Below are positions 5,633 to 64,000 of a stretch of 64,000 nucleotides of DNA, in pieces. The notes below the pieces were generated by a model that saw nothing but the letters and a program-made list of their open reading frames with translations, searched no databases and was not told where the DNA came from. The DNA lies in assembly GCF_013315695.1 (NCBI RefSeq), contig NZ_CP054353.1. One strand, written 5' to 3'. A program made the position numbers and the translations under genes. Source of the DNA: Escherichia coli. GTDB lineage: Bacteria; Pseudomonadota; Gammaproteobacteria; Enterobacterales; Enterobacteriaceae. Position 1 is the stretch's first letter. The number at the start of each line of letters is the position of its first letter.

Positions 5633-5678
5633 TCTTCTGATAACCGGATGGCGCGAAACGTCATCCGGTTATACTTCA

Positions 5679-6437
5679 TTAATACATCAACTTAATACGC
5701 TGCGTCTGCGCGTACTTCACATACTCATCTTCCGGGCAACAATCGCTCACCATAATATCAAAGCGTTTCAGGTCACCCATGCGCGCCGGACGCACCTTGC
5801 CAAATTTACTGTGGTCGACAACCAGCACATGCTTTTGCGCCATCGACATGGCCCAGTGTTTTACCGGCAACTCTTCAAGATTAAAACAGGTAGCGCCTTT
5901 ACTGACATGCACGCCCGCCGCAGAATAAAAAGCGATATCCGGGCAAAAATTATTCAGCGTTTGCTGAAAATCGATGGGTTTGAAAATGGCGTTGCTGGCG
6001 TGAAATTCACCACCACACAGAAACGCGCGGCAATGAGGTTTCTCTTTCAGCGCCAGAAAGGTATTTAGCGAATAACAAACGGCGGTAAAAGGGATTTCAT
6101 TATCAATCGCTTCAATAATCCACGGTGTGGTGGTGCCACAGTCAAAAAAGAGGGTCTGATCGGGTTCTACCAGAGTCGCAGCCAGTTTTGCCGCCCGGCG
6201 TTTTTCTTCCACCAGGCGGGATTTTTGATCGCTTAACAGGTAATGGCTGGCGCTGCGCGGTTCCAGAACAATATAGCCGCCGAGCAAAACGACGGGCGCA
6301 CTGTGGTTGTTCAGATCGCGACGAATCGTCATCTCCGAAACCCCAAGCAGGGCGGCGGCGTCTTTAAGATGTAACTTATCGCTGCGTTTTAATTCTTGCA
6401 GCAGCTGCCCGATACGCTCTTCGCGACGTGTTTCCAT
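5679..6437 (-). CDS. deoR: Deoxyribose operon repressor DeoR
   Basis: 252-aa ORF with N-terminal HTH and DeoR-type sugar-binding C-terminus. Confidence 0.92.
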   Translation of the reverse strand: METRREERIGQLLQELKRSDKLHLKDAAALLGVSEMTIRRDLNNHSAPVVLLGGYIVLEPRSASHYLLSDQKSRLVEEKRRAAKLAATLVEPDQTLFFDCGTTTPWIIEAIDNEIPFTAVCYSLNTFLALKEKPHCRAFLCGGEFHASNAIFKPIDFQQTLNNFCPDIAFYSAAGVHVSKGATCFNLEELPVKHWAMSMAQKHVLVVDHSKFGKVRPARMGDLKRFDIMVSDCCPEDEYVKYAQTQRIKLMY

Positions 6438-11662: not shown

Positions 11663-11681
11663 TAGATAAATTTTAGGCAAC

Positions 11682-11760
11682 AAAAAACCCACCAACCTTG
11701 AACCGAAATGGCGGGGTTGATGGGCTCCACAAAATGGGGACATCAAAGAAAAGCAGTGGC
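11682..11760 (-). ncRNA. rybB: Sigma-E-dependent small RNA RybB
   Basis: Reverse complement reads gccactgcttttctttgatgtccccattttgtggagcccatcaaccccgccatttcggttcaaggttggtgggtttttt, matching recalled RybB including the terminator hairpin and T6 tail; located between rcdA and ybjL as in K-12. Confidence 0.85.
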
Positions 11761-46852: not shown

Positions 46853-47025
46853 AAAGTTCTTTTGCGCTGCATTGCTGGCGTAAATGTCAGCAATGCAGCA
46901 TTTCCTCACGATTCTTCTTTGACGATCGCACTTTTTGCTCGTTATGATGGCGTCGCTAGCCTCAGTAAATCCTTACTCCGGCGGTGCGCAACCCGTGCGC
47001 GTGAACCACTATCTGAATGCTCATC

Positions 47026-57062: not shown

Positions 57063-58349
57063 TTACCCCACTTTCTTATGGGGCATACATGGGACACTTT
57101 CAGATAGTCTTTTGTTAAGGAGTTCTATCTGTTCGTGATTGTTGTCTTTCATCCATGCTCCGTAAACATTGAATACCATTTGTGCGTTTGTGTGGCCCAT
57201 CTGGCTTGCGATAAAACTAGGATTAGCTCCAGCGGCAAGTGACCAGCATGCATAAGTATGCCTGGATTGGTACGATTTTCTGTGTCTCAGACCTGCGTGT
57301 TTTAAGATACTTGTCCATGACTCCCTGATGGAGTCAACCTTATAGTGCGGTCCGGAAAACTGCCGCTGTTTTATTACCTGAGGACTAAAAACAAAAGTGC
57401 ATTTATGCACAGTACTTCTCCCATATTCCCTCTGCTTTACCTCTACAGAATGTTGCTTTCCAAGCATGGTCATTTCCGCCTGACTTTTAAGAGCATCAAT
57501 AGCTGGTTGAACCAGATGAATTGTCCTTCCGGTGCCAGCATCGGTTTTTGGTGGAGTGAATTCGCCAAGTTTTGTATAATTCCTACGGATGGTTATAGTC
57601 CTTGCTTTAAGATCTATATCTTCCCATGCCAGCGATACCAGCTCCCCGTGACGAATACCCGTGTATACAGCGAGAATCCACAGGTTTTTTGTTTGTTGAT
57701 GACGGCAAGCCTCAATAAAACGAATAAATTCGTCACGGGTGAGAGGATCTGGTTTTACCTTGGACTTTTTTAAGGGAGCCAGACCGTTAAATGGGTTTCC
57801 TGAGGTATAACCATTATCTGTTGCAAATTGAAACATTCCAGCTATGGTTGTCATATAGTAGTTTACCGTGACCACTGAGCGCCCTTTTATGGAAGAAGTC
57901 TTTCCATTAGAAAGTTTTTGGTAACCGGTCAACAAATCTCTCCTTACGAAAAGTAAATCCTCTTTTGTTATGGATGAAACCAGTTTTTTTTCACCTAACA
58001 TTGGTAACATGTTTTTAATTACTGACTGGTAACGGTTAAGTGCATTCGCACAAATCTCAATTTTCTTAAGGTCCAACCATTTTTCCGAAAGTGCCTTAAC
58101 GGTTATCTCTCTTTTTCCCAGACCAAAGTGTTTCAGGTTAGGGGAATTAGGGAACTGCGCGGAGTAGTCGAAACTCCCCATTCTGATTGCAAAACAAACG
58201 GAAGTGCGAAGTTCACCAGCGATCTTCCGGTTTTTGGCTGTGTCAGGAACACCGAGGTTTTCTCTGACACGTTTGCCATTATAGTGAAACCATATACGGA
58301 GTGATCCTCCATGGTTTTCAACGCCTGTCGGGTATGATGCGTTACTCAT
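57063..58349 (-). CDS. int: Phage tyrosine integrase
   Basis: 428-aa ORF with C-terminal tyrosine-recombinase catalytic region (..RHTYACWSLAAGANPSFIASQMGHTNAQMVFNVYGAWM..); 3' end about 30 bp from the att junction. Confidence 0.9.
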   Translation of the reverse strand: MSNASYPTGVENHGGSLRIWFHYNGKRVRENLGVPDTAKNRKIAGELRTSVCFAIRMGSFDYSAQFPNSPNLKHFGLGKREITVKALSEKWLDLKKIEICANALNRYQSVIKNMLPMLGEKKLVSSITKEDLLFVRRDLLTGYQKLSNGKTSSIKGRSVVTVNYYMTTIAGMFQFATDNGYTSGNPFNGLAPLKKSKVKPDPLTRDEFIRFIEACRHQQTKNLWILAVYTGIRHGELVSLAWEDIDLKARTITIRRNYTKLGEFTPPKTDAGTGRTIHLVQPAIDALKSQAEMTMLGKQHSVEVKQREYGRSTVHKCTFVFSPQVIKQRQFSGPHYKVDSIRESWTSILKHAGLRHRKSYQSRHTYACWSLAAGANPSFIASQMGHTNAQMVFNVYGAWMKDNNHEQIELLNKRLSESVPCMPHKKVG

Positions 58350-62160: not shown

Positions 62161-63078
62161 TTAAGTTGTTGGATTTTGGCTTTTATCTTCTTTGTAAGAA
62201 AGAAGGTCACACATCAAATTAACTACCTTGCTGAATTGGAAAAGGTCAGCGCCAGTCTGATGACGCCACTGGAATGCTTTATCATCTTCATCATTAAATG
62301 TCTGAGATTGAGTATTGATGCGCGAAAAATGGAAATTTTCGGTAAGAATGAAGGTCACACCGCAACCGGATAACTCCATTTTATCAGCAGTGAAACTACT
62401 ACTAAGGCTATCGGCCAGTTCGCTTTGAATTGACTCATGCTCAGCTGAGTAGCGAATAATTTCCTTTTGATCTGCGTAGCGTGATAGCTGAATATAATTT
62501 CCGACAGTGAATCCTTCAAATGCATTGGCTGCACCATTGATGTAGTTATTCAGGCGTGTAGTCAGTCCATTCTTGATATCACTGATGTTGATTGTTTCTG
62601 TTTTCACTGAACCGACAACCTTAATCAGCATTGCGCATACCATACCGGCTATTATTTTATTGGTTGTGTTGATTACCAATAATTTCTCATCAGTGCTGTA
62701 CAATGCAAGAATCAGAGTAGACTTAACAAATGCCTGTTTGCATAGATCTACTCGTACGTTATCAATAATGGCCAGTCGTTCGGCACGCTTTAATTTATTC
62801 CCGGACATATTTTCGGTTGTTTGGATTCGAGAATTAGCTTCTTTCATGACGACATGTCGGGGAATTATTTTCTGATCATGACGGATTACCATTGCGTACC
62901 CACCAGATATCGGAGTTACCAGTTCACCAGTGACAGGATTCTCTACAAAAGAGGACCGTGAAAATTCTGTTTCCCCGATTTCAGAATAAGGGAGTTCGAG
63001 AAGATGACCTTCAATAGCCTGTATACTAGGTAATGTTGCTCGGTACACAATTGCGTTACGAAATTTTGGTAATTTCAT
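62161..63078 (-). CDS. RdgC-like recombination-associated protein
   Basis: About 305 aa from ATG at 63078 (MKLPKFRNAIVYRATLP...) with aggaaa SD; N-terminal pattern and length resemble bacterial RdgC (MLWFKNLMVYRL...). The ORF-track 5' extension to 63279 is likely untranslated. Confidence 0.5.
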   Translation of the reverse strand: MKLPKFRNAIVYRATLPSIQAIEGHLLELPYSEIGETEFSRSSFVENPVTGELVTPISGGYAMVIRHDQKIIPRHVVMKEANSRIQTTENMSGNKLKRAERLAIIDNVRVDLCKQAFVKSTLILALYSTDEKLLVINTTNKIIAGMVCAMLIKVVGSVKTETINISDIKNGLTTRLNNYINGAANAFEGFTVGNYIQLSRYADQKEIIRYSAEHESIQSELADSLSSSFTADKMELSGCGVTFILTENFHFSRINTQSQTFNDEDDKAFQWRHQTGADLFQFSKVVNLMCDLLSYKEDKSQNPTT

Positions 63079-63765
63079 TCTATTTTCCTCTGCACAATGT
63101 ATTAGTTTCTCCACAAAACAGAGAAGAACACCTGCGGTGGCAGCCGCCCGGATGGATTGGGTTATGAGCCCGTCGTCCGGTGATGCTCTTCTCTGTTTTG
63201 TAAAAAGAGCGGTACCAGCCGGAAGCAAGTGTACAAACTGGTACCGCCAAAGCAGTGGCTGTTGTGGTGGGGTTGTCACTCAGGCGTATGGTCAACCTGA
63301 CAACCCGGTGTCCTCAACGGGGAAAGAGTAACCCCGCCATACTTACCGCCGCGCCATTTCGCGGATTACCACAACGCTGAGAGCACTTAGCCAGTTACGG
63401 CACCACACTTTGTCGCGGTTCCATAAATGCCCTCATCGTTGCACCCTGGTCTCTTCCCAGGCGTCAAACCGAATCGCCACGCTGGTTAGGCGTCTTATCA
63501 GCATCCTCATTGACTTGCACATTCCGGCTATCTGGTTTGTTTGCCCGAGCAAGGAGTGGATTGTCCCCTTTAACGTCCCCAGACCGCTAACGACGCATGT
63601 GCCATACGCCGTGTTACAACCAAATTTTGTTAGTACCTTGTTTGTAGGTCTGGAGAGAAAGATAAAATGAAGTTGCGCATTATGCAAGTGTTTTATTGCG
63701 AGATAAGCAATTTGGTGGGTAATGAAAAGCCACCTTCTGGTGGCTAATTGATGTTGAGGTAGGGG

Positions 63766-64000
63766 GTTAATTGTGTCGCTTAAGGGTCTGTGACTGACTG
63801 ATTAAGACCTTTCCAAAGACCATAAACCGGTGTTCGTTTTCGCTGGTAATTCCCCATTCGCGGTAAATCTGATTATCAGAAATTACCAGCAGTTTATCAG
63901 GTATCATTTGCAGTCGTTTGACGTAAATTTTATCATCAAAACCAAATACATATATACCATCCCCATCAAACTGATTGATACTGATATCAACGAAGATGAG
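63766..64000 (-). CDS. Partial CDS (C-terminal 78 codons; start lies beyond right window edge): S24 LexA/CI-like peptidase domain, candidate phage repressor
   Basis: Manual translation ..LIFVDISINQFDGDGIYVFGFDDKIYVKRLQMIPDKLLVISDNQIYREWGITSENEHRFMVFGKVLISQSQTLKRHN*, resembling the C-terminal autocleavage domain of CI/LexA-type repressors. Confidence 0.4.

Follow-up and report, generated by a model that had tools for sequence, protein, structure and literature searches.

In Escherichia coli K-12, the dicBF operon of the Qin prophage is an early operon located beside the immunity repressor (dicA and dicC correspond to cI and cro); processing of its transcript by RNase III as well as RNase E is documented, and read-through of an intrinsic terminator expresses the genes downstream. 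STnc100 (Rfam RF02076) and PasD, which are reported to have a common structure and different seeds (bioRxiv 10.64898/2026.05.13.724894), consist of a structured 5′ module, a variable seed, and a terminator; PasD is located near Q and the lysis genes, not at PL. In phage P1, the leader of the ban operon is transcribed from an early promoter controlled by the C1 repressor and is annotated with a “dicF-like region” as well as tRNA-Asn, tRNA-Thr, and tRNA-Ile, while HK022, a lambdoid phage without an N-type protein, carries put RNAs (approximately 70 nt, two stems) just past PL and PR, which act without phage proteins. Here, we analyzed a 64,000-nt stretch of E. coli contig NZ_CP054353.1 (hereafter, the window), at the end of which a lambdoid prophage contains a long non-coding gap between an rdgC-like gene and the repressor gene (63079–63766, read on the minus strand). 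This gap is a DicF/STnc100-type prophage small-RNA locus joined to two widespread RNA structures without a database name. Three structures on the operon strand are supported by covariation, namely an RNA designated X, a DicF-type leader, and a long hairpin; by sequence comparison, homologues of the DicF-type leader are found in the upstream part of the Qin DicF precursor and in the ban operon leader of P1. With a probability of roughly 0.65, we favor the reading that the gap is where the early-left (PL-equivalent) operon has its control region and its untranslated leader, which is composed of folded RNA modules, is processed, and has no N-type gene.

The DicF-precursor-type leader (63258–63377; this and all further features of the gap are on the minus strand) contains a segment of 107 nt (positions 191–297 of our BLAST query) that is 94.4% identical to K-12 Qin, where it lies between ydfC and dicB and ends 26 nt upstream of dicF. 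The Qin counterpart forms the upstream part of a 190-nt RNase III product (PMC10448788), and RNase E trims this precursor to the 53-nt DicF (PMC5069750). In the window, the leader is closed by a helix between 63377–63368 and 63268–63258 and includes hairpin A (63364–63349), helix B (GUAUGG at 63342–63337 with CCAUAC at 63291–63286), hairpin C (63336–63318), and helix D (63306–63298 with 63278–63270); because the final helix pairs with the loop of the preceding one, the leader contains a pseudoknot. The homologous “dicF-like region” of P1 keeps every helix through compensatory changes (from the window to P1, CGGGG/CCCCG becomes CUGGG/CCCAG, GUUGUCA/UGACAAC becomes GUUGCCA/UGGCAAC, and GUAUGG/CCAUAC becomes GCAUGG/CCAUGC). 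An initial annotation of this DNA had described the gap as an unusually long non-coding stretch with stable hairpins; both hairpins that it named are present, within 1–10 nt of where it had placed them, and the second (ccgcg at 63349–63353 pairing with cgcgg at 63360–63364) is hairpin A of the leader. A role as an anti-GcvB sponge was considered and rejected; the AgvB motif CACAACA (PMC4104026) is present, but it is the 3′ strand of the closing helix of the leader, and K-12 keeps this helix by wobble pairs without the motif.

Beyond the leader, the arrangement of modules differs from both of these relatives. Compared to Qin, the window has X in place of ydfABC upstream of the leader. Downstream, the STnc100-like spacer and dicB of Qin give way to a tRNA-like hairpin and rdgC. 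The same kinds of modules make up the leader of the P1 ban operon (DicF-type leader, own small RNA with terminator, hairpin module, tRNAs, and X, followed by ban), and the 17 nt that precede X in P1 (AUUUGGUUGUAACACGG) are also found in the window; in P1, however, X comes last, directly before ban, protein genes are interspersed (tciABC, as well as upl and plp on the other strand), and the hairpin resembling the initiator tRNA was not seen.

The slot that follows the leader (63202–63257) corresponds in position to DicF. It consists of the single-stranded segment AGCCACUGCUU and an intrinsic terminator (63248–63202) formed by GGCGGUACCAG, a 19-nt loop, and CUGGUACCGC, followed by UCUUUUU, so that the window small RNA reads AGCCACUGCUU-UGGCGGUACCAG-19-nt loop-CUGGUACCGC-UCUUUUU. 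The terminator stem has 10–11 bp and forms in the minimum free energy (MFE) structure; it is the first hairpin of the initial annotation (gcggtaccag at 63209–63218 pairing with ctggtaccgc at 63238–63247 in plus-strand coordinates, with TCTTTTT following on the minus strand). In its position, the slot agrees with DicF, as it comes after the 94%-identical leader, is closed off by an intrinsic terminator with (U)UUGGCGGUA at the start of its 5′ arm, as in Qin, and belongs to an operon beside the immunity repressor. In its seed, it does not; the DicF seed UUUCUGGUGACG is absent, with AGCCACUGCUU standing between leader and terminator instead, and the 3′ arm and loop of the terminator are unlike those of DicF. 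The Rfam DicF model (RF00039; gathering score 48 bits) gave no match in the window even at E ≤ 10, while the same search scored K-12 DicF at 76.7 bits, and the STnc100 model (gathering score 47 bits) likewise gave no window match at E ≤ 10. The earlier suggestion that the gap may encode a phage small RNA is supported by the homology of the locus to the Qin DicF precursor; canonical DicF is not supported.

A scan of viral contigs with the leader motif showed a constant leader followed by exchangeable small-RNA cassettes. Canonical DicF is the majority allele of the slot. The remainder comprises DicF joined to different hairpins, three or more further seeds, the window allele, and a single arrangement that has no small RNA. 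In phage SfII, the terminator hairpin of the window is preceded by the seed AUGCUGUGUGUAGUC, and the SfII locus aligns end to end with STnc100 at 39.5 bits, which is below the 47-bit threshold. Because SfII shares the terminator and aligns with STnc100, the window allele is best described as a chimera with a DicF-type leader (in place of the STnc100 5′ module), an STnc100/SfII-type terminator, and a shortened seed. This allele was found in 810 of 5426 E. coli genomes and is therefore not a one-off lesion; with its short seed, it may no longer have its former targets or may have acquired others, and its main role may be that of an attenuator. SfII itself (L004, approximately 2660–2600, minus strand) belongs to a small-RNA family with the seed core GUGUGUAGUC (usually GCUGUGUGUAGUCUUGG, with minor variants), which comprises approximately 50 further loci (L132, L138, and L160, among others), has variable terminator hairpins after the seed, and occupies the DicF slot in many lambdoid phages; an STnc100 match, below the threshold, was obtained with the SfII copy only. 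The window lacks the GUGUGUAGUC seed.

Upstream of the leader, X (core at 63442–63618) was placed by our covariance model R1 at 63618–63442 with 130 bits (E = 3.5e-38), which gives a length of approximately 177 nt in the window. Its structure, with five helices and two candidate pseudoknots, was tested on 40 of 70 diverse representatives of the more than 120 loci returned by a second viral scan. In the alignment of 40 sequences, 97.5% of the cells were paired, compared to 29–42% when the pairing partners were slid; compensatory changes were found at 15 of 29 pairs, and none of 500 shuffles matched the covariation score. The helices contain many G-U pairs and are thus strand-specific, and the alignments show invariant blocks between variable hairpins, with compensatory changes and with insertions and deletions (indels) that are not divisible by three. 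X is accordingly a conserved structured RNA and a candidate for a new family. Both pseudoknots are likely from the aligned sequences; one would pair the invariant loop UAUGGCACAU with an invariant AUGUGC, and the other a loop CACC with GGUG, for which the window has the compensating change AACC/GGUU. No Rfam family matched X in any of eight loci, permissive Rfam scans of the window and ten related loci returned nothing for X, the leader, or the long hairpin, and a text search of the literature with X core strings yielded nothing relevant.

The X-containing segment (query positions 291–534) matched 78 phage records, including lambdoid phages (cdtI, mEp460, and Stx2c phages), Uetakeviruses (phiV10, TL-2011b, SPN1S, and Tyrion), P1, P7, and D6. 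In Uetakeviruses, the terminase and adaptor genes flank X, which is on the opposite strand just upstream of a tRNA-Arg gene; in P1, it is located between tRNA-Ile and ban. Its orientation always follows local transcription (PL, tRNA-Arg, or ban operon), and the strand transcribed at each locus is the one that corresponds to the minus strand of the window. Among 135 loci, X was found at most 700 nt downstream of a same-strand cI-like gene in 58 and in the Uetakevirus setting, which is unrelated to PL, in 55; a tRNA-Arg(UCU) gene follows X by 205–530 nt in 22 loci, and a GUGUGUAGUC small RNA is found within 2 kb downstream in 55. At some loci, X begins 3–10 nt past a promoter with operator dyads. 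The R1 search gave a single X per phage, with no match in HK022, Qin, SfII, or F1055; a second copy was seen neither in the 64-kb window nor in the PR region of the identical prophage locus of E. coli MSB1_4I (L001). In a search of one genome per species, 24 of 27 X 18-mer matches were confirmed by R1 (E ≤ 3e-33), all of them in Enterobacterales; the other three (Azonexus and two metagenome-assembled genomes) were not confirmed by R1 and were dismissed as chance matches.

Some X loci have additional features nearby. Loci L146, L168, and L211 carry a hairpin and an exact boxA (GCTCTTTAACAA), an arrangement resembling nutL, approximately 30–60 nt after X, so X and Nus-dependent antitermination can coexist. 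In P1 (L128, approximately 2495–2440, minus strand), AUUUUCUGGUGA is found between X and the ban ribosome binding site and is identical over 12 nt to the 5′ end and seed of DicF; this identity may reflect either chance or conservation of an RNase E site. Enterobacter phage Tyrion (L130) carries an int-alpA RNA at 450–514 on the minus strand (Rfam, 44 bits, above the gathering score), near a DUF551 gene.

X is followed in the window by a hairpin module (63369–63441) closed by CAACGAUGAGGGCA and UGCUCUCAGCGUUG. The closing helix covaries between loci (e.g., CAGGUAAGAGCA/UGCUCUUUCCG and CUGAAAGAGCG/CGCUCUUUUUCAG). In other phages, the slot after X holds tRNA-like cargo or lies directly before tRNA-Arg. 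Cargo hairpins of several loci (L156, L247, L129, and L147, among others) often contain perfect tRNA T-arms (GCGGTTCGATTCCGC and CTGGTTCAATTCCAG), and the cargo of L147 resembles a tRNA with a long insertion; ARAGORN called only tRNA-Arg(UCU) and one tRNA-Met in the sequences downstream of X. These cargo hairpins may be degenerate or non-canonical tRNAs.

The third covariation-supported structure is a long hairpin (63113–63201), located directly after the small-RNA terminator, with a 20-bp stem between 63201–63182 and 63132–63113. Its inner arm ends in CGGGCUCAUAACCC (63172–63159), which is identical over 14 of 14 nt to the anticodon stem-loop of the initiator tRNA (tRNA-fMet), comprising the three G-C pairs and the CAU-containing loop (GGG-CUCAUAA-CCC); the tRNA-fMet sequence was checked against annotated genes (100% identity, four copies per genome). 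Beyond these 14 nt, the hairpin stem (CCCAAUCC) differs from the tRNA (CCCGAAGG), and the hairpin has no acceptor, D, or T arm. In an alignment of 19 sequences, 95% of the cells were paired, compared to 38–49% with partners slid, and seven pairs showed compensatory changes. More than 120 viral contigs carry a 21-nt core, GACGGGCUCAUAACCCAAUCC, of which 72 versions are distinct; it nearly always follows a small-RNA terminator directly and precedes the first protein gene by 30–40 nt. In loci L267 and L270, it sits on two unrelated stems. This occurrence on unrelated stems suggests that the loop resembling the initiator tRNA is a portable functional unit. Operators in mRNA leaders that mimic tRNAs, such as the thrS operator, are known, and the hairpin described here likewise lies in a leader, approximately 80 nt before the start codon. 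The hairpin is separated from rdgC by a linker (63079–63112) with a conserved GUGGAGAAAC and the rdgC ribosome binding site GAGGA (63090–63086); GTGGAGAAAC is kept 3′ of the long hairpin in all variants.

Our data confirm that the stretch of approximately 690 bp is non-coding, as no credible protein gene was found in 63079–63766. The minus-strand open reading frames (ORFs) of the gap encode 84, 71, and 26 aa, all with TTG starts; the start of the 84-aa ORF is upstream of the inferred transcription start, and none of the four longest gap ORFs on both strands matched Pfam. The homologues of the gap show indels of lengths not divisible by three as well as compensatory changes in pairs, and public records place “hypothetical proteins” over this interval on a strand that varies between records. 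One RefSeq record (NZ_CP069500.1) shows a “frameshifted hypothetical protein” over the homologous long hairpin, and phage records call ORFs there on either strand. Because of the covariation, and because the strand of the calls is inconsistent, we treat them as spurious; a frameshifted gene, which the initial annotation had named as a finding that would speak against it, is thus not indicated, and the comparison with related prophages that it had proposed shows conserved RNA modules in the same interval rather than a maintained ORF. The 582-nt minus-strand transcript has an MFE of −224.7 kcal/mol, compared to −191.3 ± 7.7 for shuffled sequences (z = −4.37; none of 100 shuffles as stable). G+C content reaches 53–57% over 63100–63600, compared to approximately 40% in the flanking genes, and the plus-strand GC skew is −0.19 to −0.22 over 63300–63600, so the minus-strand RNA contains more G than C. 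The non-coding part of a retron, also raised initially, is not supported; no Rfam retron (msr-msd) match was obtained even at E ≤ 10, and no reverse transcriptase is annotated in the prophage, where the neighbors of the gap are rdgC and the repressor.

Upstream of X, we identified elements expected of an early promoter region. The repressor gene ends in an intrinsic terminator (63728–63745; AGCCACC-AGAA-GGTGGCT followed by TTTCATT), which the terminator scan called and whose homologous site in SfII is annotated as a rho-independent terminator. Two operator-like dyads TTGC-N7-GCAA follow (63673–63710; OL2 at 63710–63696 and OL1 at 63687–63673); the cI-cro intergenic region of the same prophage contains TTTATTGCGCGTTAAGCAA, to which TTTATTGCGAGATAAGCAA is 89% identical, and a second OR segment, to which AAATGAAGTTGCGCA is 87% identical. 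Overlapping these dyads is a putative PL-type promoter (63659–63687), with −35 TTGCAT (63687–63682), a 17-nt spacer, −10 TATCTT (63664–63659), and a predicted start near 63651. Comparable promoters (TTGCGT-N17-TATCTT, with TTGCG-N5-CGCAA dyads) are found 3–10 nt upstream of X elsewhere (L213 and L227). A consensus promoter scan called no site in the gap, and the promoter therefore rests on homology and on the operator repeats. Of the possibilities raised initially, a regulatory site is the one that these elements bear out, as operator dyads and a promoter lie within the non-coding gap.

The position of the gap in the prophage agrees with such a control region. The order is int, xis, early genes, rdgC, gap, cI-like repressor, and cro-like gene, with the whole prophage adjoining mlrA. 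Because the 693-bp XRE-family repressor gene in the 100% identical record NZ_LR898874.1 (E. coli MSB1_4I) stops one base past the gap, the gap ends at 63766; the stop codon occupies 63767–63769 and not 63766. The window contains the 3′ part of this cI-like S24/LexA-type repressor gene (63767–64000, continuing beyond the window end; WP_012599998.1 in the identical RefSeq locus). Past the repressor, MSB1_4I carries on the other strand cro-like, YmfL (cII-like), and Rha antirepressor genes, followed by replication genes and Q; from the order of repressor, cro-like, and cII-like genes, the gap occupies the position of OL/PL, nutL, and N in lambda. A lambda-type N/nut system was not found here, as the first PL gene is rdgC, the gap holds no credible ORF, and the only boxA-like string (CGCUCUUUUUACAA), considered as a boxA candidate and rejected, is merely the terminator tail; boxB was not formally searched. 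Parts of the gap were found by BLAST in 4741 of 5426 complete E. coli genomes and almost the whole gap in 642. Matches end at fixed points (query positions 24–171/191, 191–297, 291–534, and the final 130 bases), and the gap is a mosaic of conserved modules.

If the gap is the leader of the early-left operon, inactivation of the S24 repressor would allow transcription to start near 63651, and the G-rich, tightly folded leader may evade Rho. Part of the transcripts would end at the terminator at 63248–63202 and yield an RNA of approximately 450 nt. RNase III would cut at the long helices that close the modules, and RNase E would cut as well; both cleavages have been shown for the homologous DicF species of 190 nt and 53 nt. 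Processing could thereby free X, the leader, and the short-seed small RNA. Transcripts that pass the terminator would contain the long hairpin with its tip resembling tRNA-fMet and would allow expression of the genes from rdgC to xis and int. In this way, the leader would both attenuate the early-left genes and supply early small RNAs that act on the host. Several findings weigh against this reading. The promoter scan missed the predicted promoter, which is weak when judged by the consensus, and the terminator was not called by the terminator scan, whose limits its 19-nt loop exceeds. The window allele contains neither the DicF seed nor the GUGUGUAGUC seed, so it is possible that the small RNA lacks a target and that the hairpin is an attenuator only. 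In addition, the Qin sequences flanking the leader differ, and X also occurs far from repressor genes, in the terminase/adaptor interval of Uetakeviruses and inside the P1 ban operon, which indicates that its role is not specific to PL leaders.

A broader, tentative proposal is that X represents an undescribed RNA class of temperate Enterobacterales phages (approximately 160–180 nt), which would head arrays of small RNAs, tRNA-like elements, and tRNA-Arg and act on RNA polymerase, Rho, or a ribonuclease, while the neighboring hairpin would likewise be a new element and would capture a tRNA-fMet-specific host factor (VapC, MetRS, or the 30S P site). More narrowly, X might be a put-like cis-acting RNA that modifies the polymerase or blocks Rho and so permits read-through of the terminator, the tRNAs, and approximately 0.5–1 kb of untranslated RNA as far as the early genes without N. 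Put RNAs work without protein factors (PMC9378689), X takes the place of putL/nutL in a prophage that has no N-like gene at the N position of lambda, its start at several loci is within 3–10 nt of the promoter, and it always lies upstream of same-strand terminators or tRNAs; a compact fold with invariant unpaired segments and the two candidate pseudoknots would also suit such a role. We nevertheless regard it as rather unlikely, since X shows no convincing likeness to HK022 putL in sequence or structure (no alignable similarity beyond a 9-nt coincidence, CAUGCGUCG) and is a single RNA of approximately 177 nt with five helices and no PR-side copy, whereas HK022 has both putL and putR. The boxA that follows X in L146, L168, and L211 further argues that X is not a simple replacement of N-nut, X in P1 is located downstream of most RNA genes of the ban operon, and the 55 Uetakevirus loci place it in a cassette unrelated to PL. 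An anti-termination site of a known kind, as the initial annotation had considered, is thus not supported for this gap. A paper on antitermination in mEp phages was set aside, as it concerns another phage group.

The tRNA-fMet-like tip could alternatively mean that the leader is an anti-defense array of tRNA imitations, to which the tRNA-like cargo and tRNA-Arg beside X in other phages would also belong, acting as decoys or replacements against host anticodon nucleases, of which VapC is an example. The VapC enzymes of Shigella and Salmonella cut the initiator tRNA in its anticodon loop. VapC-generated tRNA fragments are mentioned in PMC9879122. Selection would act on the loop sequence itself, given that the 21-nt core is constant while the stem that carries it covaries and that the same core is found on the unrelated stems of L267 and L270, and a repressor-controlled early promoter appears to drive the array. 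Sequence identity on its own, in this case the 14-nt match, suggests a decoy role; however, the stem is unlike the tRNA past those 14 nt, ARAGORN found no tRNA or transfer-messenger RNA (tmRNA) gene in 63000–64000, the Rfam tRNA model had no match in the window even at E ≤ 10, and the loop could equally be read by MetRS, by the 30S P site with IF3, or through pairing to AUG regions. For the accessory defense or anti-defense module raised initially, this likeness to the tRNA-fMet anticodon stem-loop is the only hint. Overall, we consider an anti-defense array improbable. Decayed protein genes, for example of the N or ydfABC type, that remain intact in relatives are a very improbable origin of the gap. 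The frameshift call in NZ_CP069500.1, the small hypothetical proteins of phage records (mEp460 gp36/gp37, SfII_35/SfII_36, cdtI gp40, and F1055_0036/F1055_0037), and the presence of ydfA, ydfB, and ydfC upstream of the leader in Qin would fit such remains, but the calls lie on opposite strands between records and the ORFs lack Pfam domains; divergence takes the form of compensatory pair changes and of indels not divisible by three, 96–100% conservation across hundreds of genomes has kept no frame open, and the lack of similarity indicates that ydfABC was replaced by X rather than decayed. Even less credit is due to the modules acting as DNA, either as recombination junctions for mosaicism or as single-strand initiation or primosome sites; module edges do coincide with mosaic breakpoints, junction strings (GTTGTGG and GGTGAATGCG) recur, and X in P1 lies directly upstream of the helicase gene ban, yet the G-U pairs of the helices become C-A mismatches on the other strand, orientation always follows local transcription, and the neighbors are RNA genes (tRNAs, DicF, and STnc100-type small RNAs).

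Across thousands of E. coli genomes, and in dozens of phage records, this interval has either no annotation or spurious “hypothetical proteins”; it is a dense non-coding RNA locus at the site where lambda has its master antiterminator. DicF, which was among the first bacterial small RNAs described, is one allele of a modular system, in which a constant frame of leader and terminator holds exchangeable seeds (DicF, STnc100-type, GUGUGUAGUC, and the short window allele) and whose building blocks are common to lambdoid phages, P1, and Uetakeviruses. Two of these blocks, X and the long hairpin that carries the initiator-tRNA loop, have a wide distribution and covariation support and lack an Rfam entry, which makes them candidates for structural and functional study. 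If X does modify transcription, it would be the second known phage antiterminator RNA that is independent of protein, and if the tRNA-like hairpin is a decoy, it would represent an RNA-only form of counter-defense.

Outside the gap, the rdgC-like gene (62161–63078, minus strand; annotated in RefSeq as recombination-associated protein RdgC) is the first protein gene of the early-left operon. The tyrosine integrase gene (57063–58349, minus strand) is followed by an excisionase gene and tightly packed early genes, the last of which is rdgC; the integrase is whole in the window (428 aa), and its MSB1_4I counterpart (L001, 4786–7271) is interrupted by ISKpn26, so the window and MSB1_4I represent different isolates with the same prophage. 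In mEp460 (L003), an isrK RNA (5638–5714, 67 bits) and a C4 antisense RNA (5739–5826, 83.6 bits) were found within an antirepressor/transcriptional-regulator gene, which suggests a P1-type c4/ant immunity circuit in this lambdoid group; the equivalent region of the prophage studied here is past the end of the window. The chromosomal part of the window includes rybB, osmF-yehYXW, and mlrA; the Rfam matches there, the RybB small RNA (11679–11757, 104 bits) and a Peptidase-S11 cis-regulatory RNA (46941–47021, 72.8 bits), are common core-genome features.

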